Below are positions 7,142-18,437 of a stretch of DNA of 32,000 bases, one piece after another. The position numbers were made by a program, and so were the translations under genes. Where the stretch lies: assembly GCA_046497275.1 (NCBI GenBank), contig JAWOFX010000084.1, forward strand, positions 1-32,000. Reading direction: 5' to 3'. The notes under the pieces were generated by a model. It did not search any database. It worked only from the letters and a program-made list of their open reading frames with translations, and was not told where the DNA came from. Source of the stretch: Promethearchaeia archaeon (GTDB lineage Archaea > Asgardarchaeota > Lokiarchaeia > Sigyniarchaeales > SOKP01). Position 1 is the first letter of the stretch. Every line of letters starts with the position of its first letter.

Positions 7142-8101
7142 TCATTTTTTGGGTCTAATCACAGAATAAAGGTCTCCCACAGTAGTATTCATTTCCGCAT
7201 AAACATTATGTGGATGGATTGATTCAAAACTCTCAATTTTAAAGGTTATTTTAAAATTATCTTGTAAATTTGGAAAATCTCTTCTTAAGAAATTCCGTGC
7301 CATTTCTCGTATAATATCTTCTGCAAAAAGTGGTTTGAGATGAGCACTTCTAACTAATTCCGCTTCCTCATATCTTTTTAACACCGATTGGATTTTTCCA
7401 GACATACTCTCTTCAATCACGTCAATTAATTCCAACACATCAATCTTATGACTGTTTAAATCATTTATTTGGAGGATGATAGTACCTTTGGATCTCTGAT
7501 TATGTGAAGCAAAAGGAAGGATATTAATTAATTTTTTTATATCTTCATCGGAAACATTAATATCTTTTCGTGTTCGGATAACCTCCTCAGCATATTCCTG
7601 TGACATTGATTTTGCGCAAGGGCAACAGCTAATTCCTACAGCTGAAGCACCGATAAAATAATTAGAGTCAATTTCCCCTTTCTGATTCTTTTTTGCTGTG
7701 GTGCGTGAACTTATATCATATGATTTTTGAATATTACCATGGGAATTTTCTCTAACCTGAACGATAATTTTACCTTCAAGATTAACTTCTACTTTTGAGG
7801 TGTAGGGATGGCGTTCTATTAACTTTTTTGCAATTCTATCTCCTACGAGTTCAATAGTAGGTGTTGGTTTGAAAATTACTTCATTAATAATTTCCTCGAT
7901 AGTTTCAGATGTCCGAGACATATGAATGCCCCTCTGTTGAGCGGGAAGAGAGATTAGGGCAGATATTTTTGGATAAAACGAATATCGTTTATTTTCTTGC
8001 ATAATCTCTACCTTCTTCTCAACATTAACAATTCCTACTTTATCGATAGGTAGATCAAAGGCAGATTCAGAATCTTGAAGGTCTTTTTTAAAATGATAAA
8101 T
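7142..8101 (-). CDS. mptA: GTP cyclohydrolase IV / FolE2 family (MptA); probable ATT start at 8101
   Basis: RGIHMSR, SCCPCA, ASHNQRS, LKRYEE, PLFAED, ESIHPHN. The family's N-terminal DLQ...IDKVGI motif lies upstream of the ORF-track ATG (8002) in the same open frame. Confidence 0.92.
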   Translation of the reverse strand: MYHFKKDLQDSESAFDLPIDKVGIVNVEKKVEIMQENKRYSFYPKISALISLPAQQRGIHMSRTSETIEEIINEVIFKPTPTIELVGDRIAKKLIERHPYTSKVEVNLEGKIIVQVRENSHGNIQKSYDISSRTTAKKNQKGEIDSNYFIGASAVGISCCPCAKSMSQEYAEEVIRTRKDINVSDEDIKKLINILPFASHNQRSKGTIILQINDLNSHKIDVLELIDVIEESMSGKIQSVLKRYEEAELVRSAHLKPLFAEDIIREMARNFLRRDFPNLQDNFKITFKIESFESIHPHNVYAEMNTTVGDLYSVIRPKK

Positions 8102-8203
8102 ATTATTTCACCGAAGCCAAAACTTCAATATATAATAATTTACTATTTAATATAGTTAATGTTCAATTTAGTTAATATTTAGTTTAAGAAATATTTTTAG
8201 GTA

Positions 8204-9376
8204 TTGCGTATTTTGACACAATTTTCTTTTCCCTTTGGACTTATTGGAGATGATTTGCTCTTAAAAAAAAATATTCAATTTAAAGTAGATGCGCAAGGAA
8301 GGATTTTAGATCTTATATATGAAGATTGTGGAGAAGTAGAAAGTGAATTTTTAAAAAAAAATCCAGTTCATATTATTCTTCCAGGATTAATCAATTCTCA
8401 TGTTCATATTGGCGATAGTTTTGCAAAAGAGATGGGATACGATAAAAATCTAATTGATGTGGTAGCCCCTCCTAACGGCGTTAAACATAAACTATTAGCC
8501 CATACCCCTTCTAACATAAAAAAAGTGGGAATACAAAAAGCAGCACAAGAAATGATTTCTAACGGGATTACATTTTTTTCAGATTTTAGAGAAAGAGGTT
8601 TAGAGGGAATAAATTTGATAAAAGAGGGCTTAGCTTCAACTCCGATTAAATCACAAATTTTAGGAAGATTTAGAGAGAAAAGTGAAATAGAATCAATCTT
8701 TCAGAATGCTGACGGGATTGGTCTTTCAAGCTATAAAAACATTACATCCCAATTAAAAGATATTTTAAAAACCTTCAAGAAAAAATATAATAAACTTATT
8801 GCTTGTCATCATGCAGAATACAAGAGAGATTCCTTATTATTCAATAACATCTTAAATGATAATATAATTGATGTTATTATACATGGAACTCAATTAAATG
8901 ATGAGGATTTGCTTAAATTAAAAGGTTCTGGGATTTCACTAATCTTATGTCCTCGTTGCAATGGATATTTTGGAGTGGGATTTCCACCCATAGAATCAAT
9001 TATTAGGAATAATATTTTAATTACAATAGGAACAGATAATATGATGGTGAATTCTCCTGATTTATTTGAGGAGATGAGATATTTATATTTGATATTCAAA
9101 GTTTTAAATAAAAGTCAGGATCTTTCACTAACAGCTAAAAGTTTATTGGAAATGATTACTGTTAATGCCGCAAGAATTTTAAATATTGAAAATATGATTG
9201 GGTCTATTAAAGAGGGTAAGCAAGCAGATTTTTTTACTATTAATTTAAATTCAAATAATTATTATTGCCATCAAATTAATTATCATAACATTTATCCCTT
9301 AATAGTCCAAAGAACAAAACCAGAGAATATTAGACAAGTGTATATAAATGGTGAGAAAATCTTTGAAAGAAAATAA
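8204..9376 (+). CDS. Metal-dependent amidohydrolase, deaminase type (COG0402-like)
   Basis: PGLINSHVH (HxH), CHHAE (HxxE), IIHG, LCPRCN, GTDN, GSIKEGKQADF. Confidence 0.88.
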   Translation: MRILTQFSFPFGLIGDDLLLKKNIQFKVDAQGRILDLIYEDCGEVESEFLKKNPVHIILPGLINSHVHIGDSFAKEMGYDKNLIDVVAPPNGVKHKLLAHTPSNIKKVGIQKAAQEMISNGITFFSDFRERGLEGINLIKEGLASTPIKSQILGRFREKSEIESIFQNADGIGLSSYKNITSQLKDILKTFKKKYNKLIACHHAEYKRDSLLFNNILNDNIIDVIIHGTQLNDEDLLKLKGSGISLILCPRCNGYFGVGFPPIESIIRNNILITIGTDNMMVNSPDLFEEMRYLYLIFKVLNKSQDLSLTAKSLLEMITVNAARILNIENMIGSIKEGKQADFFTINLNSNNYYCHQINYHNIYPLIVQRTKPENIRQVYINGEKIFERK

Positions 9377-10037
9377 GAAACCATATATCATATTAAGTGC
9401 CGCAATGACTATTGATGGAAAGATAGCATCTAAAATTGGCGATCCCGAATTATCGGATGAAGAAGATTGGAAAGAAGTCCATAAACTTAGAACAAAGGTC
9501 GATGCCATTATGGTGGGAAAAGGAACAATATTGAAAGATAACCCAAAATTGCATATTAAATATTATGATCATTCGGGATATTATCGGATCGTACTAGATA
9601 GTAATTTATCTATTCCATTAAGTTCAAAGGTAATAAATTTCAAACCAGAGATATATCCAACCCTTATATGCACCACAGAACATGTTCCAAATGGAAAAAT
9701 TAGAGAATATGAATCTAAAAATAATACAGAGATTATCACATGTGGATCTAATGAACAAGTGGATATATCAAAACTTATGCCTATTCTTTTGGAAAAAGGG
9801 ATTGAATCAATCTTGTTAGAGGGAGGAGCAACATTGAACTGGAGCTTTATAGAGCAAGATCTAGTTGATGAGATCAGACTTACTATTGCTCCTTGGATAG
9901 TTGGTGGAGTAAAAGCCACTAGCTTAGTCGAGGGGATGGGATTCGAACAAATGAAACAAGCTCCCAGATTTGAACTTACTGATCTTAAGCATAGAAATAA
10001 TTATGTAATTTTACAATACAAGCGAACCGAGAAATGA
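9348..10037 (+). CDS. arfC: 2,5-diamino-6-(ribosylamino)-4(3H)-pyrimidinone 5'-phosphate reductase (archaeal ArfC/Rib7 type)
   Basis: PYIILSAAMTIDGKIA, VHKLR..VDAIMVGKGT...DNP, LLEGG..LN. Reductase domain only, with no fused deaminase. Confidence 0.92.
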   Translation: MVRKSLKENKKPYIILSAAMTIDGKIASKIGDPELSDEEDWKEVHKLRTKVDAIMVGKGTILKDNPKLHIKYYDHSGYYRIVLDSNLSIPLSSKVINFKPEIYPTLICTTEHVPNGKIREYESKNNTEIITCGSNEQVDISKLMPILLEKGIESILLEGGATLNWSFIEQDLVDEIRLTIAPWIVGGVKATSLVEGMGFEQMKQAPRFELTDLKHRNNYVILQYKRTEK

Positions 10038-11158
10038 AAAAATTGCCTGATATTGACAAATTGCTGGCTTTAAGTATTTCAGAGATACAAGAGCAAGTTA
10101 AAAAAATTAAGTATAACCTGTCATCGGAAGAAAGGAAGATTATTACTTTTTCAAAAAATTATACACTTTCGTTATCAAATTATTGTCAGAATGAATGTGG
10201 ATATTGTTATTATAATTACAAAATCCCAAAAGAAAAGGAAGAAGAAAACGTCGTTTTATTATCCAAAGAGGAAATTGAGAATAAAACTGAAAGAGCATTG
10301 AAATATGGATGTAAAGAAGCATTGATTATGTCAGGAGAAAATCCAGGGATATTTCCAGAAGTTAAAAATTTACTAAATGATAATGGATTTGATAATTATT
10401 TAAATTATGTACAAAATATCTGTCATTATTTATTAAAAGTGAATATGCTTCCTCATACTAACATTGGTTTCCTAGACCTCAAAGAGATGAAATCTCTAAA
10501 AAAGTGTTCCTCTAGTATGGGATTAATGTTAGAAAGTTCTAGCGAAGAATTGTCTAAGAAGGGAAGGGTTCATGAAAAATCCCCCGGGAAATTACCATCT
10601 AAAAGAATAAAGCATATAAAAACAGCCGGTAAATTAAAAATACCCTTTACTACGGGTTTATTATTAGGAATTGGAGAAACTAGAAGAGACCGGATAAATG
10701 ATTTATTATTGATAAAAAATATAAATGATAGATATGGTCATATCCAAGAAGTAATTATTCAGAACTTTGTTAGGAAACCATATATTCAATATCAGCCCTC
10801 TAAAACAATTTCTATTAAAGAAATGCTTAGAGTGGTTGGGCTTGCGAAATTGATTTTTAAAAATAAAATTGCTGTTCAAGTACCTCCTAATTTAATTGCC
10901 GGTTATGAAAAACAATTTTTAAATATGGGAATTGATGATTTTGGAGGAATCTCCCCTTTCACCATTGATTATATTAATCCAGAAAATAGATGGCCAGAAA
11001 TTAAAAGATTAGAGACTATCTGTAAAAAAAATGGGTTTATTTTAAAAGAGAGATTACCAATTTATGAAAAATATATAGATAATGAATCGTTCTGTCCAGA
11101 AAATATACAAAAAATTATAAGAAATATTAGAGGAAATGTCGTTAAAAGAAGTTTGTGA
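10034..11158 (+). CDS. cofG: FO synthase subunit CofG (radical SAM)
   Basis: ITFSKN, CQNECGYC, PHTN.G, SMGLMLES, KSPGK, PFTTGLLLGIG, HIQEVIIQNF, QVPPNL, DDFGGISP...NPE..WP. ATGA overlap with arfC. Confidence 0.93.
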   Translation: MKKLPDIDKLLALSISEIQEQVKKIKYNLSSEERKIITFSKNYTLSLSNYCQNECGYCYYNYKIPKEKEEENVVLLSKEEIENKTERALKYGCKEALIMSGENPGIFPEVKNLLNDNGFDNYLNYVQNICHYLLKVNMLPHTNIGFLDLKEMKSLKKCSSSMGLMLESSSEELSKKGRVHEKSPGKLPSKRIKHIKTAGKLKIPFTTGLLLGIGETRRDRINDLLLIKNINDRYGHIQEVIIQNFVRKPYIQYQPSKTISIKEMLRVVGLAKLIFKNKIAVQVPPNLIAGYEKQFLNMGIDDFGGISPFTIDYINPENRWPEIKRLETICKKNGFILKERLPIYEKYIDNESFCPENIQKIIRNIRGNVVKRSL

Positions 11159-12269
11159 TAATATCGAGCTAGAAATTAAGAATATTCTTGAAAAAAGTCT
11201 TAATAATATTGATATCAGTGAATCAGAAGCTTTAAAGTTATTAAAAACAACTGGTAAAGAATTCCTAGCCTTACAATCTGCTGCGAATCAAATTTGTTTT
11301 AACAAGAAACGAGATATTGTAACTTTTGTTGTTAATAGAAATATAAATTTCACTAATATCTGTTATCAAAAATGCAAATTCTGTTCTTTTAGTGTGCCAA
11401 AAAATCATCCTGATTCTTTTTTATTATTTATAGATGAAGTAGAAAAAAAAGTATTAGAAGCAAGCGATTACAATATAACGGAAGTATGTATGCAAGGAGG
11501 AATAAATCCCGATTTAACGTTCGAATATTATTTAGATATTTTAAGAAAAGTAAAAGAGATTGATTCTAAGATACATATTCATGCGTTTTCTCCTCAAGAA
11601 ATTTTCTATATATCGCAATTATCTCAAAATTCAGTTGAAGACACATTAAAGGAACTTAAAAAGGCAGGTTTAGATTCTATACCGGGTACTGCAGCAGAGA
11701 TGTTAGTAGATAAAATTAGAGAAATCGTTTGTCCTAATAAAATTTCTACACAAAAATGGACTGAAATTGTAAAAACAGCTCATACTTTAGGAATTCCCTC
11801 TACTTCTACTATGATGTATGGACATATTGAATCATTAGAGGATCGAATTGAGCATTTAAGGGTTTTAAGAGAGATTCAAAAAGACACTATGGGATTTACG
11901 GAATTTGTACCATTACCCTTTGTTAAAGATAATCCCATTTTATCTCTACTACCCGAAAAACCCCTCAAACCGAGTTATGGGATGGCAGATTTAAAATTAT
12001 TTTCCGTCGCACGACTCTTTTTTAATAATTATATTGATAATATTCAATGCTCTTGGGTAAAGTTAGGACCAAAATTTGCCCAAGTTTCACTTAATTATGG
12101 AGTAAATGATTTTTCGGGTACGCTTTTAGAAGAAAATATCTCAAAAAGTGCGGGTGCAGAATTTGGGGAATATCTTTCTCCGGAGGAGATTGTTTCGATT
12201 ATCAAAGAGGCTGGTAAAAGACCAGCTCAAAGAACAACCACATATGATGAAATCCTTAAATATTATTGA
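11136..12269 (+). CDS. cofH: FO synthase subunit CofH (radical SAM)
   Basis: VVNRNINFTNICYQKCKFC, MQGG, HIHAFSP, PGTAAE, TMMYGHIE, FVPLPF, NIQCSWVKLG, GTLLEENIS. Follows cofG directly. Confidence 0.93.
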   Translation: MSLKEVCDNIELEIKNILEKSLNNIDISESEALKLLKTTGKEFLALQSAANQICFNKKRDIVTFVVNRNINFTNICYQKCKFCSFSVPKNHPDSFLLFIDEVEKKVLEASDYNITEVCMQGGINPDLTFEYYLDILRKVKEIDSKIHIHAFSPQEIFYISQLSQNSVEDTLKELKKAGLDSIPGTAAEMLVDKIREIVCPNKISTQKWTEIVKTAHTLGIPSTSTMMYGHIESLEDRIEHLRVLREIQKDTMGFTEFVPLPFVKDNPILSLLPEKPLKPSYGMADLKLFSVARLFFNNYIDNIQCSWVKLGPKFAQVSLNYGVNDFSGTLLEENISKSAGAEFGEYLSPEEIVSIIKEAGKRPAQRTTTYDEILKYY

Positions 12270-12316
12270 TAATTTTGATTAATAATTTCAATTAAAAACA
12301 GAATAAGGTGTAAATA

Positions 12317-12610
12317 ATTACAATAACAGTTATTGCAAGTGTCAAAGTAAAAGAAGGAAAGATGGATGAAGCTAAAGAGATGTTAAAGGAATTAGTTCCA
12401 AAAATAAAAAATGCTGAACCTGGAACACTAGAATATATCCCACATACAGTAAAGGGACGAAAAGATAAGAATACTATTATTTTTTATGAAAAATATAAAG
12501 ATGGTGAAGCTTTGCGAAAACATTCTGGAAATTTAGCCGAATCTTTAGGACCTCTTATGCCGTTATTAGAACCAGGTATGGACTTGAAAACATGTTTTGA
12601 AATAGTTTAA
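12317..12610 (+). CDS. Antibiotic-biosynthesis-monooxygenase (ABM) family protein; probable ATT start at 12317
   Basis: EPGTLEY...FYEKY.D.EAL..H is an ABM motif. The typical first strand (ITVIASVKVKEGK) lies upstream of the ORF-track ATG (12362), bounded by an in-frame TAA at 12311. Confidence 0.8.
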   Translation: MTITVIASVKVKEGKMDEAKEMLKELVPKIKNAEPGTLEYIPHTVKGRKDKNTIIFYEKYKDGEALRKHSGNLAESLGPLMPLLEPGMDLKTCFEIV

Positions 12611-12621
12611 AGCAGTTTAAA

Positions 12622-14193
12622 TTATTCGTCTTGAATATATGGTTTTCCAAAATCAAGACACATTTCTGCCTTTTTTAATTCTCTTCCCAAATAATTAATA
12701 TGAGAGAGATTTTTAGTTAATTCTAACTCTATTATTTTTTTTGACATTACTTCTGCATTCTGGCCACTAAAGACCTTGAGCAATTTATCATTATTAGAAT
12801 AAAATAAGACAAAAATTCTTTTTTTATAGTGATCTACATAGATTTTAAAGTAACCAGCTTGATCAGCTTTATAATGAGCGCGTGATCCTTTAATATCAAC
12901 TATGTTTTGAGTGGAAAAATCTGGGATTTCTTGAGATGTTTTTCCTTTCGCTTTAAAGATTTGAATTCCAACATTGATAGGTGGAGTATTTTTATATTTA
13001 GAGAGATAATTTAGCATCAAAGATCTCTTTAATTCTTTCACACCTCCAAACATTTTGGTACTATGCTCCACGGTAAACACTATGCCCATATCCATCTCAA
13101 TTGCTATGCTTGCTAATAATCCATTGATCCCAACTGAATCTACATCCATTAATTCAACAACATTAGAAATTCCAAAAAACATTGGCAATTCAAGATGGCG
13201 ATATTCTTCCTTAGATGCCTTTTGTTTATATAAATAATACGTTTGTAAAGAATTAAGAATTCCCGGAGAGATGGGTGTTTCTAATAAAGGATCTGCTATC
13301 AATTTAGTAAATCCATTGTTTTGCAATTTCTCGGTTAATTCAAATAAGTTTTCCACCCGTTTTTCAGGATCTTTTGGAAAATACCCTTCATCAATATTAG
13401 TTGGGAGAATTACGATAGGAATATCTTTTGGGATATCTAGGAATTCTTTATAATATCCGATATCAAAACTCAAAATCATATCGATCCCTTCCTCTAAAGC
13501 CGAGAAAATCTCTTTTGTATCCATTGAGTCGATACTAATGAGTGTATCAAAATTTTTCCGTAATAATTTAATGATTTCTTTTACTCTAGAGGGTTTAGAG
13601 TTGTTTGCAAGACATCCAATATCGATAATATCCGCACCAGAATCAATATAATGCTCTGCTTTTCTGAGTATAGATCTGTCTGATTTTTTTGTGCAATTTA
13701 CAATTTCTGCGATAATAGGAGGAGGGAGGCTCGGACCTATTATTACATCACTAATTTGTTTATTTAAAAAGAATGTATTATGAGAGATGTTTTTCTTTGC
13801 TTTGTCGATTTTCTCCCGCACTATTTCATTATACTTTTTCTCTCCAGATAACTCAAAAAGTTTATCAGCAGCAATTTGATTTGATAATTCAATTTCTCCG
13901 AGATTATTTAAAATCATTGGAAGATCTGAAGCAAATTCTGGTCCTTTTCGAATTGGTAAATTATATTTATTCTCTATTTTGCTTAAATCCCATTGGACAA
14001 ATCCGGGGAGAAGTATTAAATCATATTTGGTTAAATCTAAGGAGTTTAAGGCATCTTCAGCCATTTTTGGTGTAATAAAAGCGGAAATAGAAACAGGGAT
14101 TTTATTTACTTCAATTTTATGACCTTTGATATTTTCTGATATTCCCCTAAGAATTGAATAACTTTGCTTCCCAGTTAATATTAAGATTCTAAT
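12622..14193 (-). CDS. Dihydropteroate-synthase-like pterin-binding protein of methanopterin pathways, with C-terminal DUF4346-like domain; probable ATT start at 14193
   Basis: GADIIDIG, ISIDS, IADPLL, GISNVVELMDVDSVG.N and C-terminal D..GYF.I. The N-terminal RILILTG...SISAFITP segment is open in frame upstream of ATG 14064. Confidence 0.88.
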   Translation of the reverse strand: MRILILTGKQSYSILRGISENIKGHKIEVNKIPVSISAFITPKMAEDALNSLDLTKYDLILLPGFVQWDLSKIENKYNLPIRKGPEFASDLPMILNNLGEIELSNQIAADKLFELSGEKKYNEIVREKIDKAKKNISHNTFFLNKQISDVIIGPSLPPPIIAEIVNCTKKSDRSILRKAEHYIDSGADIIDIGCLANNSKPSRVKEIIKLLRKNFDTLISIDSMDTKEIFSALEEGIDMILSFDIGYYKEFLDIPKDIPIVILPTNIDEGYFPKDPEKRVENLFELTEKLQNNGFTKLIADPLLETPISPGILNSLQTYYLYKQKASKEEYRHLELPMFFGISNVVELMDVDSVGINGLLASIAIEMDMGIVFTVEHSTKMFGGVKELKRSLMLNYLSKYKNTPPINVGIQIFKAKGKTSQEIPDFSTQNIVDIKGSRAHYKADQAGYFKIYVDHYKKRIFVLFYSNNDKLLKVFSGQNAEVMSKKIIELELTKNLSHINYLGRELKKAEMCLDFGKPYIQDE

Positions 14194-15296
14194 TAGAGAT
14201 CACGATCTATTTTTCCTTTATCGAATGGAATATATATATTATCTAATATTGATCCCGATGCATCTCTTATTCTTAGATTATCAATAATATCTTTATATTT
14301 CCCTCCTAATAATCCATCGGCAATAAAAGCGGCACCTTGAGCTGCTCTTTTTGCTATCTGACTATAACTATTCATTAATCGAACAGGCGCTACTTCTTTA
14401 AGGGTTTGAATGACCTTGTTTCTTAGATAATTTATTTCAGCACCTCTTCCCGCTAACAAAATCTCTGTAATTTTATCTTTTTTTGAAAAAGAGGAAGAAA
14501 TTCCGAATACTGCTTTTTTAACACTTGATAAATAGGCATTAAAAGCTTTTTTTGTTTGATCATCCTTTTCAGCTAAAATTGTAATTTCTTTAAGACTCAG
14601 GTCGCTATACCCACTTATATAGGAAACCCCACCTTTATAGATATTTTTTTTCTTTATATTTTTGATCAAATACGCTAGTTCTCCATCCAGACTCCCACAA
14701 GCTCTAAAACCCATTATATTTGAACCCCCTATTCCATCGATAATTTGACCATTTTCTATTGCTAACACTGCTGTAAATCCATATCCAATTTCTACCATAA
14801 TAAAATTACTTTCTGGAGGAGGTATATCATATTGTTCTGTCTGGTCTTTTATTCCCGTGACTGCGGTACATAATTTATCTGCTGTACCCATATCAATTTT
14901 ATTGATTTTTCTATAGTCTGGAACAGTAAGTAAATGTTTCACACCTGGAACGATTACACCAGGGACACCCAAATCCTTAAGTAATCGTAAAATCTCTCCC
15001 AGTCCTAATAATTTATTTTTTTCCTCACTCTTAAACTTCAATAAGGTTAGGAATAAATCTTTCTCGGTTAAGTCTTCCACTTTCTTTAGGGGCAAACCAA
15101 ATCCGGAAGGTGCAACCATCAAATCGATTTTTTTTCGATCATCTAATGATTGGATAATATCAACGACTTTGGAGGGTTGTCTCATTATTTCTCTTGTAGA
15201 GATTGAAATATCCAATATAATATCATCTCCATCGAGACTAAGGAAATCCCAGCTTTTTGATCCCGGATCTATTCCTAAAACCGTTTTTTTATTCAT
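14193..15296 (-). CDS. DUF1464 family ASKHA-fold protein (COG2441, butyrate-kinase-like)
   Basis: GIDPGSKSWD, APSGFGLP, PGVKHL.TVP..RK.N.IDMGTADK, GSLDGELAY, AAQGAAFIADGL.GG. Confidence 0.85.
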   Translation of the reverse strand: MNKKTVLGIDPGSKSWDFLSLDGDDIILDISISTREIMRQPSKVVDIIQSLDDRKKIDLMVAPSGFGLPLKKVEDLTEKDLFLTLLKFKSEEKNKLLGLGEILRLLKDLGVPGVIVPGVKHLLTVPDYRKINKIDMGTADKLCTAVTGIKDQTEQYDIPPPESNFIMVEIGYGFTAVLAIENGQIIDGIGGSNIMGFRACGSLDGELAYLIKNIKKKNIYKGGVSYISGYSDLSLKEITILAEKDDQTKKAFNAYLSSVKKAVFGISSSFSKKDKITEILLAGRGAEINYLRNKVIQTLKEVAPVRLMNSYSQIAKRAAQGAAFIADGLLGGKYKDIIDNLRIRDASGSILDNIYIPFDKGKIDRDL

Positions 15297-15390
15297 TTTA
15301 AGCAAATTAAATGAATTTTTCTTGACTATTTACAATAATAATCAATTCATTATATTCTTATAATAAATTTTGAAAAAAATTAAAAGCCTT

Positions 15391-16389
15391 TTATTCAGAT
15401 TTATTGGTTCTCCCAATCGCTACAATCATTCCTTTATAATCGAAGATTTCATTATTTTTAAATCCACTTGCTTTTAAATCTTGTAGGATTTCCTCTTTTG
15501 AAAAAATTGAATTAGAAATTGAATCTTTATATATTTTTAGAATCTCATCAGCAGCTATATCCTTTGTTAAAGGGAAAGGTGCTTTCGCAACAATAATTAC
15601 CATACCATCATTTGGTCTTAATATTCTATACAATTCAGCAAGAATTTCAAGACGTTCCATTCCATAAAAATGAATTGTCTTTTTATAATTCGGAATAGCA
15701 ATCATTTCAATAAAATTATCTGGTTCCCTGATTTTTTTATTATAAACTTTAGAAATACGTACATCTTCGAGATCTGTTTTGGAATAATCTTCATAATTTT
15801 CTTTACTTGATAAAATGAATACCTCATCCGCAAGGTTTTTATACCAATTGACTAATCGGAGATGAATATATTCTGAAAACCATACGCCCATGAGGTTATC
15901 TAAATGGGTTTTTCCACTTTTTTCGATGATCAAATTAGTTAATCCCTCATCAAATTTTACGAAATCGGGAATAACCGTTGAATCCATGAAAAATTGCAGA
16001 AGTGTTTTAATAACATTCCGAGCAAGTGGGGTTGGTTCCACTGTCTCGATTCGTCCTTTATGATTAAGATTGAATTTAATTAAACCTCGAGACTCGAGAT
16101 TAGAAAGATTATTATAAAAACTTGAGGTGGAGAGATTTGCACCATTTTTCTCTTTCTTTTTAACATAAGTTAGTAAACGATTTTCATATTCCTTCAATCC
16201 TTTAGTTGATAAATTTTCCAACTCTGTTTTTCTTGTCTGAATTAATTCATTTACAATTACATAGAGTGTGTAGCGTACAATAGGTTTTCCATATTCAAGT
16301 AGAGAATTTAACGTAATAATTTCTACTAAAGAAAGGTTTATTAGATTCCCAATTCGCAACTTTTTTATTAAGGAAGTATCTTCAGAAAT
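15391..16389 (-). CDS. Winged-HTH (PadR/MarR-like) regulator fused to a degenerate SAM-methyltransferase-like domain; probable ATT start at 16389
   Basis: LSTSSFYNNLSNLESRGLI is a wHTH recognition helix. C-terminal ILAELYRILRPNDG...FSKEEI...L..SGF is typical of class I methyltransferase tails. Confidence 0.6.
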   Translation of the reverse strand: MSEDTSLIKKLRIGNLINLSLVEIITLNSLLEYGKPIVRYTLYVIVNELIQTRKTELENLSTKGLKEYENRLLTYVKKKEKNGANLSTSSFYNNLSNLESRGLIKFNLNHKGRIETVEPTPLARNVIKTLLQFFMDSTVIPDFVKFDEGLTNLIIEKSGKTHLDNLMGVWFSEYIHLRLVNWYKNLADEVFILSSKENYEDYSKTDLEDVRISKVYNKKIREPDNFIEMIAIPNYKKTIHFYGMERLEILAELYRILRPNDGMVIIVAKAPFPLTKDIAADEILKIYKDSISNSIFSKEEILQDLKASGFKNNEIFDYKGMIVAIGRTNKSE

Positions 16390-16919: not shown

Positions 16920-18437
16920 ATGATTATTATGATAAATCAATCAAATAAGATGATGACCGGAACGGTCAAATGGTACAGTGAAGAAAAAGGATATGGATTT
17001 ATATCATCAGAAATTATTGATGAAGATGTATTTTTACATCGTTCTGCTATTCAAAATAATGATGATATTCAACTTTTTGCTGGCGATCGTGTTACATTTA
17101 AGGTTAAAAAGCAAAAAAAAGGACTTGCTGCAAAACATGCAGAAAGGCTTAAGGGAAAAAAATCTCCTGAACAAATTAGTGAAGTTAGTAATGAAATATC
17201 CTTAAGTGATCTTGCAAAATTTAATTCGAGAGATATGCAATCTGAAACAGTAAGACAAAAAAGCACTGATATCTCTTTTACAGATCTTGAACTGATTCCA
17301 GAATTATTACATGCAATACGAGATGCCGGCTATGTTGAACCAACCCCAATACAAGCAAAAGCCATCCCTCTCGTTTCAGATGGGCGTGATCTCTTGGGAT
17401 GTGCTCAGACAGGAACGGGTAAGACTGCAGCATTTGCACTTCCTATACTGCAGCGGCTGAATAAAACTATTCCGAAACGCTCTAATGATGGGAGTATTAA
17501 AAAAACGCATAAAAAACGTCAAATAAGAGCATTAATAATTGCTCCTACAAGAGAGCTTGCCATTCAAATAAAAGATAGTTTCAATATCTATGGTAAATAT
17601 ACGGGATTAAGATCAACTGTGATCTACGGTGGAGTAGGACAAAACCCACAAGTCCAACAACTAAAACGTGGTGTGGATATTGTGACGGCAACACCTGGGC
17701 GACTCCTAGACTTAATGAGACAAGGATATGTCGATCTAAGATATGTTGAAGTATTCGTATTAGATGAGGGTGATAGGATGCTTGATATGGGGTTTATTCC
17801 CGATATTCGGCGTATCATAAAGAAACTTCCTCAAAAAAATCGACAAACAATGCTATTCTCGGCGACACTTCCCGATAAAATCATTGAATTGGCTAAAAAT
17901 ATTCAGACTAATCCTCTTGAGATAAGAATTTCTCCAGAAAAGCCTACCTTAGATATTATCACGCAGGCAGTATGTTTTACATCAAAGAGAAAAAAACAGG
18001 CGCTTTTGGAATTTTTGCTCCGAGATCCCGCTTTTAAACGCGTATTGGTGTTTATTCGTACAAAACGTAGTGTTAATCGAATCGTGAGAAATTTAAAAAG
18101 AAAAGGAATTAATGCCGAACCAATACATGGAGATAAATCACAGACTGCGCGGCAAAGAGCACTTAAAAACTTTCGCGACGGTAGAACCCGTGTACTGATT
18201 GCTACCGATGTAGCCGCTCGGGGTATTGATGTAGATAATATCACACATATCATTCAGTATGACTTACCAGACGTAGCTAAAACTTATGTGCATCGTATCG
18301 GACGTACTGCACGAGCAGGTTCGGGGGGGACAGCAATTGCATTTTGCGAAGACCAAAAACGTGGTATGCTCAAAGAAATTGAGAATTTAATCCAAATGCA
18401 TGTAAATGTGTTTAAAAATCACCCCTACAATGCATAA
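16920..18437 (+). CDS. Cold-shock domain fused to RhlE-like DEAD-box RNA helicase
   Basis: CSD: GTVKWY, KGYGFI (RNP1), VFLH (RNP2). Helicase: Q motif GYVEPTPIQ, AQTGTGKT, PTRELA, TPGR, DEGD, SAT, TDVAARGID, HRIGRTAR. Start may be ATG 16950. Confidence 0.93.
   Translation: MIIMINQSNKMMTGTVKWYSEEKGYGFISSEIIDEDVFLHRSAIQNNDDIQLFAGDRVTFKVKKQKKGLAAKHAERLKGKKSPEQISEVSNEISLSDLAKFNSRDMQSETVRQKSTDISFTDLELIPELLHAIRDAGYVEPTPIQAKAIPLVSDGRDLLGCAQTGTGKTAAFALPILQRLNKTIPKRSNDGSIKKTHKKRQIRALIIAPTRELAIQIKDSFNIYGKYTGLRSTVIYGGVGQNPQVQQLKRGVDIVTATPGRLLDLMRQGYVDLRYVEVFVLDEGDRMLDMGFIPDIRRIIKKLPQKNRQTMLFSATLPDKIIELAKNIQTNPLEIRISPEKPTLDIITQAVCFTSKRKKQALLEFLLRDPAFKRVLVFIRTKRSVNRIVRNLKRKGINAEPIHGDKSQTARQRALKNFRDGRTRVLIATDVAARGIDVDNITHIIQYDLPDVAKTYVHRIGRTARAGSGGTAIAFCEDQKRGMLKEIENLIQMHVNVFKNHPYNA

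Follow-up and report, generated by a model that had tools for sequence, protein, structure and literature searches.

The subject of this study is a 32,000-nt stretch of contig JAWOFX010000084.1 (assembly GCA_046497275.1; hereafter, the window) from a Lokiarchaeial genome (Promethearchaeota, Asgard), in which four genes between positions 7142 and 16389 are preceded by Shine-Dalgarno (SD) motifs placed at a fixed distance from an ATT codon. These are mptA, a gene for a DHPS-like pterin-binding protein, a gene for a small ABM-domain protein, and a gene for a 332-aa protein. Our reading, to which we hold with considerable confidence, is that these ATTs are real AUU start codons. It draws on the anatomy of the sites, their conservation, a genome-wide enrichment, the completeness of the encoded domains, and a normal initiator tRNA gene. 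By our estimates, ATT appears to be the third most common start codon in the lineage, used by roughly 1–4% of genes. The source is a metagenome-assembled genome (MAG) of 3.85 Mb with 30% G+C and a completeness of 98.9%.

We found each of the four ATT codons, and the motif before it (GGTGA, GTGA or AGGTG, 5–6 nt upstream), where a preliminary description of this DNA had placed them. The gene mptA, coding for the GTP cyclohydrolase MptA (319 aa), occupies positions 7142–8101 on the minus strand, with the ATT at 8101–8099 and the stop codon at 7144–7142. Its SD motif GGTGA (8112–8108) is separated from the ATT by the 6-nt spacer AATAAT, and the TGA within the motif is an in-frame upstream stop. 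The 332-aa protein is encoded at 15391–16389, likewise on the minus strand, and its ATT (16389–16387) follows GGGTGA (16401–16396) with the spacer AACAAT (6 nt). The DHPS-like protein (523 aa, TIGR00284, with the domains DUF6513, Pterin_bind and PterinBD-DUF4346) is encoded at 12622–14193 on the same strand. Here, the DUF1464 gene located upstream contains, in its 3' end, a short SD-like GTGA (14203–14200), 6 nt (TCTCTA) before the ATT at 14193–14191, and the ATT shares its A with the TAA stop codon of that gene (14195–14193), forming the overlap TAATT. Finally, the ABM-domain protein (PF03992, 97 aa) is encoded on the plus strand at 12317–12610, with AGGTG at 12306–12310, the 6-nt spacer TAAATA and the ATT at 12317–12319. 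In three of the four genes, the TGA internal to the SD motif doubles as an in-frame stop two codons before the ATT. The ABM gene differs in that TAA is followed by a single codon, ATA (12314), and then by the ATT.

The 3' end of the 16S rRNA of this genome reads ...GGATCACCTCCT (contigs C34 and C67) and is complementary to GGTGA, for which reason we regard GGTGA as a true SD sequence. It stands 6 nt from the ATT, as opposed to 20–130 nt from the nearest canonical codon downstream.

For three of the genes (mptA, DHPS-like and ABM), it had been proposed that no ATG, GTG or TTG lies between the upstream stop and conserved N-terminal motifs, and for the residues required by the family profiles this is borne out. 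The first canonical start codons are ATG 8002, ATG 14064 and ATG 12362, that is, 33, 43 and 15 codons downstream of the respective ATT. Against TIGR00294, MptA scores 258 bits (cut-off 220), its residues 7–313 covering profile positions 2–299 of 302. The DHPS-like protein scores 298.3 bits against TIGR00284 (cut-off 256.65), residues 1–522 covering positions 1–494 of 497, and position 2 of the Pfam profile for ABM aligns at residue 3 of the 97-aa product. The 332-aa gene has a TTG at 16359, and its case is taken up below. This gene had been labeled a winged-helix regulator, a label that we could not verify, as no Pfam or NCBIfam family was matched at E ≤ 0.001; we therefore treat the protein as uncharacterized.

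The use of ATT was then assessed on the level of the whole genome. For an SD-anchored count, we collected codons that follow GGTG[AGT] and open a reading frame (ORF) 100 codons or more in length, where a stop is located at most 10 codons upstream and no canonical start intervenes. At a spacer of 6 nt, this yields 20 cases of ATT, 18 of TTG, 17 of ATG, 6 of ATA and 5 of GTG, while equally frequent control codons reach 9 (AAA), 3 (AAT), 3 (TTA), 1 (TTT) and 0 (TAT). Thus, ATT opens 20 of the 97 long ORFs behind GGTG[AGT]-N6, compared to about 3.9 expected (binomial p = 1.4e-9). The spacer profiles differ as well. From N5 to N9, ATT occurs 2, 20, 3, 0 and 0 times, with a peak at N6 only; ATG is spread broadly (8, 17, 16, 8 and 17). 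A second set was defined independently of the SD motif, by taking ORFs without a canonical start in their first 20 codons and scoring early ATTs for GGTG 5–9 nt upstream. Such a motif precedes 14 of 85 early ATTs (16%), but only 5 of 375 control codons (1.3%) and 3% of unambiguous ATG starts.

As a third approach, we constructed a generative start model that combines coding and non-coding codon statistics with a ribosome binding site (RBS) matrix trained on canonical starts, and in which any of the 61 codons may serve as start. It assigns 2285 genes to ATG, 270 to TTG, 122 to ATT, 101 to GTG and 51 to ATA, with every other codon at 22 or fewer. Starts at ATA thus also appear to be used, at lower levels than ATT, and the same may hold for ACG (about 14 by the model; 3 versus 0.7 expected in the SD-N6 count) and perhaps for ATC and CTG, which with about 10 each are near noise. 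Two other procedures were set aside. An unconstrained expectation-maximization with free RBS matrix and codon priors, and without division by codon frequency, was discarded because it degenerated to A-rich motifs with AAA as the "start". Likelihood tests of one codon at a time gave a gain for every common codon and inflated the fractions, and were not used for estimates; ATT and ATA still ranked top in them (log-likelihood gains of 131 and 85).

A Pfam check on 20 further ATT candidates gave a consistent picture. In 11 of them the domain begins upstream of the first canonical start, e.g., Pyr_redox_2 from residue 2, GDPD from residue 6, Pirin, ABC_tran and the P-loops of Arf/Rag proteins; nine were uninformative, and none contradicted the ATT. 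The candidates comprise Arf/Rag-type small GTPases, a helix-turn-helix regulator, a PAS histidine kinase, GDPD, Pirin, an ABC ATPase, an acyl-CoA ligase and flavoproteins, as well as helicases, transporters and oxidoreductases. Given these varied functions, the phenomenon is not specific to cofactor genes. Of two suggestions made in the preliminary description, routine AUU initiation thus holds on the genome-wide scale, by the SD-N6-ATT count, the set defined by position only, the start model and the Pfam check alike, whereas a translational tuning of cofactor genes is too narrow a view for candidates that span GTPases, regulators, a kinase, helicases, transporters and oxidoreductases. Outside the family, in a closed genome from another family of the same order, one 1.2-Mb sample gives a weaker signal, with 2.3% ATT by the model and an SD-N6 count of 13 for ATG and 3 for ATT, which is suggestive only as to how far ATT starts extend beyond the family.

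Conservation was studied in 30 genomes of the same order and 77 public loci. For mptA, we scored the codon three positions before the conserved F-K-x-D-L-Q in 74 distinct related Promethearchaeota loci. It is ATT in 51, ATC in 12, ATA in two and ATG in three of them; three more have ATG one codon away, and 3–4 show other codons. No canonical start at all precedes FKxDLQ in 55 of the 74 loci. The motif (C/T)GGTG(A/G/T) is found about 6 nt upstream in 53 of the 63 ATT/ATC loci, often with a stop between SD and ATT. In other families of the order, mptA has ATG at the homologous place.

The remaining genes behave similarly. For the DHPS-like gene, GTGA-N5/6-ATT is kept throughout family f1, with ATG in other families. 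Four orthologues (L027, L028, L034 and L051) resemble the gene studied here in having a stop at, or at most two codons before, the ATT, so that no upstream start is left; in the remaining loci of the family, the GTG of the SD motif falls in frame. Orthologues of the ABM gene (L054 and L055) have AGGTG or GAGGTG, a stop, one codon and the ATT (AGGTG-N6-ATT) as the sole option, and an orthologue from another family (L059) carries ATG at the homologous codon. The 332-aa gene has its closest orthologue, from the same genus, in L064, where GGGTGA-N6-ATT is retained and the downstream TTG is replaced by CTC; only in this orthologue does the gene lack a canonical start between the upstream stop and the conserved part of the protein.

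Independent assemblies confirm the letters themselves. ATT 8101, ATT 12317 and ATT 14193 are covered by contigs from three independent DNA studies, with no difference there among the differences listed; one of these contigs represents a strain about 6% divergent, in which the SD of mptA is also retained. No contig among those listed reaches 16387–16389, the ATT of the 332-aa gene. On the RNA level, a metatranscriptome contig from a salt-lake study (14081–14306) spans the junction of the DUF1464 and DHPS-like genes, consistent with co-transcription of the overlapping genes, where RNA contigs speak for presence only, and 5' ends and translation are beyond them.

A gene of particular relevance to start selection belongs to the same class. 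The preliminary description had named bacterial infC as a precedent, and this analogy gains weight from the aIF1/SUI1 gene of the genome (contig C118, 66902–67234), which has no ATG, GTG or TTG before its CPVC...CVC zinc knuckle, the knuckle itself preceding the first TTG. Judged by its sequence, aIF1 most likely starts at ATT 66911 of that contig. An ATT is present in 14 of 16 loci of family f1 (two of the 14 with an in-frame GTG just upstream), ATC, ATA, GTG or TTG being found elsewhere. Outside family f1, the gene starts with ATA, TTG or ATG.

The initiator tRNA appears to be ordinary. Its gene (contig C34, 10959–11081) has A1:U72, the GGG/CCC anticodon stem and the anticodon CAT, and its D-loop region is split by an intron about 30 nt long. 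Searching the genome with an anticodon-stem pattern, we found no initiator-like stem-loop with another NAT anticodon. This pattern and Rfam models were used because introns lower the tRNA count of ARAGORN, which finds 13–19 tRNAs and misses the initiator; in total, 26 tRNA matches were obtained in the whole MAG.

Based on these data, we propose the following mechanism. The GGUGA of the mRNA would pair with the 3' end of the 16S rRNA, bringing the P site to lie about 6 nt further on. At this place, AUU would be accepted by the ordinary initiator tRNA (CAU) through two Watson-Crick pairs and a third-position mismatch, such that the protein presumably begins with methionine, at a lower translational yield. 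A codon as weak as AUU would work only with a strong SD at narrow optimal spacing or, as may apply to the DHPS-like gene, by coupling of termination and reinitiation. A permissive start selection in this lineage would then let ATT serve as a common start. The tight spacing of ATT and TTG versus the loose spacing of ATG fits SD-anchored mismatch pairing. Most ATG genes have no strong SD; they are probably leaderless or SD-independent, and such routes should not tolerate AUU.

The level of permissiveness might in turn be set by an infC-like feedback acting through the AUU start of aIF1, which we put forward as speculation by analogy. Taken further, such a loop would set the stringency of start selection, and the dozens of SD-N6-AUU genes would form an aIF1-sensitive regulon; we consider this rather improbable at present.

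Several observations weigh against the ATTs as starts, or against the breadth of their use. On the side of the start model, the posterior exceeds 0.5 at 38 ATT sites, of which only three reach more than 0.9, and the ATT fraction of about 4% for the whole genome falls to 0.5–1.4% on 0.4-Mb subsamples; owing to this instability, we give a range of 1.3–4% rather than a point value. Three of the four genes have individual weaknesses. In the 332-aa gene, TTG 16359 is only 10 codons downstream of the ATT, so by the sequence of this genome alone the ATT is not strictly required, and the case rests on the relatives; the model posterior is 0.65 for the ATT and 0.17 for the TTG. In the DHPS-like gene, the SD is merely GTGA, and the posterior is split between ATA 14181 (0.30) and ATT 14193 (0.18). 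In the ABM gene, ATA 12314 directly before the ATT is an alternative start candidate. As for mptA, an ATG five codons after the ATT (FKMDLQ) is a possible substitute start in about 25 of the 74 loci. Furthermore, two of the 20 further candidates, encoding a thiamine pyrophosphate (TPP)-enzyme beta subunit and GDPD, have ATG in relatives at the exact codon where an ATT stands here. These two cases show an exchange of ATG and ATT at start sites, and some of the ATT "starts" may have arisen recently, as mutations of the start codon that are weakly deleterious and not maintained by selection. Lastly, every step from the position of an ATT to a ribosome starting there with methionine is one that we infer.

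A related observation concerns two genes of 2-oxoacid:ferredoxin oxidoreductase beta type (C98:8271 and C182:4608), which are 94% identical over their first 54 residues. One has an ATT behind GGTGA-N6 with an AT-rich upstream region, the other has an ATG within an operon (GGAGGTG). The two copies may be paralogues, or one may stem from a co-binned strain.

Among the alternatives, the one that survives best accepts the ATT starts as real and denies them any role in regulation: AT-biased mutation (30% G+C) under lax start proofreading would have produced them, as changes that are neutral or do slight harm. We regard it as possible, if on balance unlikely. The diverse functions of the ATT genes, the lineage-specific changes from ATG to ATT and the concurrent enrichment of ATA starts speak for it. 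However, ATT is deeply kept at mptA and aIF1 across many genera while neighboring bases vary, ATA is rare at the mptA site (two of 74 loci) although it makes up about one third of the isoleucine codons in the genome, and the spacing requirement is tight. As this alternative concerns purpose and not mechanism, it overlaps with the explanation that we prefer, initiation at AUU by the ordinary initiator tRNA.

Very unlikely, in our view, is a start at the first downstream ATG or TTG, with the stretch from the ATT to that codon an open untranslated leader and the shorter proteins functional. Public calls of the Prodigal type do yield such shorter products (286, 258 and 82 aa), and the nearby TTG of the 332-aa gene and the FKMDLQ loci of mptA point in the same direction. 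Yet the skipped stretches hold the motifs DLQ...IDKVGI, RILILTG and ITVIA, conserved in homologues that start at an ATG further upstream, and the family profiles align from position 1–2 at the ATT. Truncation would moreover cost 11 of the 20 other genes their P-loops, the Rossmann GxGxxG or the first strands of a domain, and it is the ATT, not the canonical codon, that the SD motif addresses.

Even less credit is due to a recoding of the start, either by RNA editing of AUU to AUG or by a dedicated initiator-like tRNA that reads AUU and possibly starts with isoleucine. With 26 matches the tRNA set of the MAG is incomplete, and the RNA contig over ATT 14193 has one difference somewhere within 14081–14306, both of which leave some room for it. 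Against it stands the single initiator-type anticodon stem-loop with its CAT anticodon, and the interchange of ATT, ATC, ATA and ATG at the mptA site is more readily explained by tolerance of a mismatch at the third position than by a device dedicated to one codon. RNA editing of the AUU to AUG type is not known in archaea.

A G>T sequencing or assembly artefact, or strain-specific mutation from ATG to ATT, has next to no probability left: it accords with the ATG in relatives of the TPP-enzyme beta subunit and GDPD genes, but it is refuted for three of the genes (mptA, DHPS-like and ABM) by the contigs of three studies, with no difference at these ATTs among those listed, and by orthologues, in which ATT, or else ATC, ATA or ATG, is kept behind a conserved SD (51 of 74 independently assembled mptA loci with ATT, and family-wide occurrence in the DHPS-like, ABM and aIF1 orthologues).

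With real AUU starts as the favored reading, the question arises as to how such genes are annotated. The preliminary description had predicted systematic mis-annotation, which is correct in part. The calls of JGI, Logan and ENA are shortened (286, 258 and 82 aa), whereas NCBI uses the ATTs studied here for mptA (319 aa, the ATT being translated as M) and for the DHPS-like gene (523 aa, with a 1-nt overlap with the upstream gene). For the ABM gene, NCBI calls a 92-aa product (MASVKV...) from a later ATT at 12332, which has no SD; we favor ATT 12317 (97 aa), given where the SD lies and that orthologue L059 has its ATG at this codon. NCBI translation table 11 permits ATT as a start, and PGAP makes homology-guided calls; such a call is an annotation decision rather than described biology.

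Starts at AUU are textbook knowledge for E. coli infC and pcnB, the former being autoregulated since IF3 rejects AUU. The genes studied here resemble them in having, as their sequences suggest, a weak AUU behind an SD that is read by a normal initiator tRNA, and in that the gene of a proofreading factor itself starts with AUU, here aIF1. They differ in scale, as E. coli has two such genes and the present genome dozens (about 1–4% of ORFs), with AUU equal to AUG in number behind a strong SD, and in the machinery, which is of archaeal/eukaryote type (aIF1, aIF1A, aIF2) and does not involve IF3. In eukaryotes, initiation proceeds by scanning, eIF1 is autoregulated via the poor context of its own start, and the near-cognate starts are mostly CUG, GUG, UUG and ACG, AUU being poor. 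Since aIF1 is the orthologue of eIF1, a weak start on its own mRNA would likewise couple its level to start stringency; in contrast to the eukaryotic case, selection in this genome is anchored by an SD at a fixed distance of 6 nt. A review covers near-cognate starts and the autoregulation of eIF1 in eukaryotes (PMC4705826), and a further bacterial AUU start is that of ebpA in E. faecalis (PMC4447247).

Within the searchable literature, we found no publication that treats ATT starts systematically, be it for Asgard or for other archaea. The closest precedent is the Asgard tubulin gene atubA of Kariarchaeaceae, for which "a rare ATT start codon" was inferred from a missing first beta strand and RBS spacing (Sci Adv 2026, PMC13394414). 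The logic is the one used here; atubA, however, is one gene, called rare and treated as a cloning detail, whereas the use of ATT described here is genome-wide, quantified and conserved across about 70 MAGs. Ribosome profiling in Haloferax found about 30% of novel sites to be near-cognate, which were set aside (PMC7261190). The ATT starts thus represent a known mechanism in a variant form, which stands out by its scale and its strict dependence on SD-N6.

Regarding the genomic setting, profile searches with Pfam and NCBIfam identify the region 7142–16389 as a neighborhood of cofactor biosynthesis. It comprises mptA, an amidohydrolase, a RibD_C reductase, two radical-SAM proteins similar to CofG/CofH, the ABM-domain protein, the DHPS-like pterin-binding protein, the DUF1464 protein and the 332-aa protein. 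The genes for the amidohydrolase, the reductase and the two radical-SAM proteins (8201–12269, plus strand) are co-oriented and partly overlapping, and are located between mptA and the ABM/DHPS-like pair; taken together, they have the appearance of an Asgard pterin/deazaflavin cofactor cluster. Further downstream (16929–18437, plus strand), the window encodes a DEAD-box helicase that carries a cold-shock domain at its N-terminus (CSD, DEAD and Helicase_C).

The practical consequence is that gene finders limited to ATG, GTG and TTG, as is the case for most MAG calls, cut conserved N-termini of ATT-start genes. If 1–4% of genes start at ATT, and others at ATA or further codons, many published N-termini of Asgard proteins would be wrong. 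As Asgard genomes are mined intensively for eukaryote-like proteins, this would touch the small GTPases here and tubulin and ESCRT proteins elsewhere, and it would affect structure prediction, expression constructs and domain inventories. For the biology of initiation, an AUU that is as frequent as AUG behind a strong SD, at much tighter spacing, offers a testable trade-off of SD strength versus codon-anticodon fit in an initiation complex of the aIF1/aIF2 type. An AUU start of aIF1 itself would be a direct parallel to the autoregulation of bacterial infC and of eukaryotic eIF1. If the feedback loop exists, its regulon would take in cofactor enzymes, Arf/Rag-type GTPases and regulators, and the self-tuning of fidelity via a weak eIF1/aIF1 start would predate eukaryotes, having arisen in SD-anchored form in their closest archaeal relatives.

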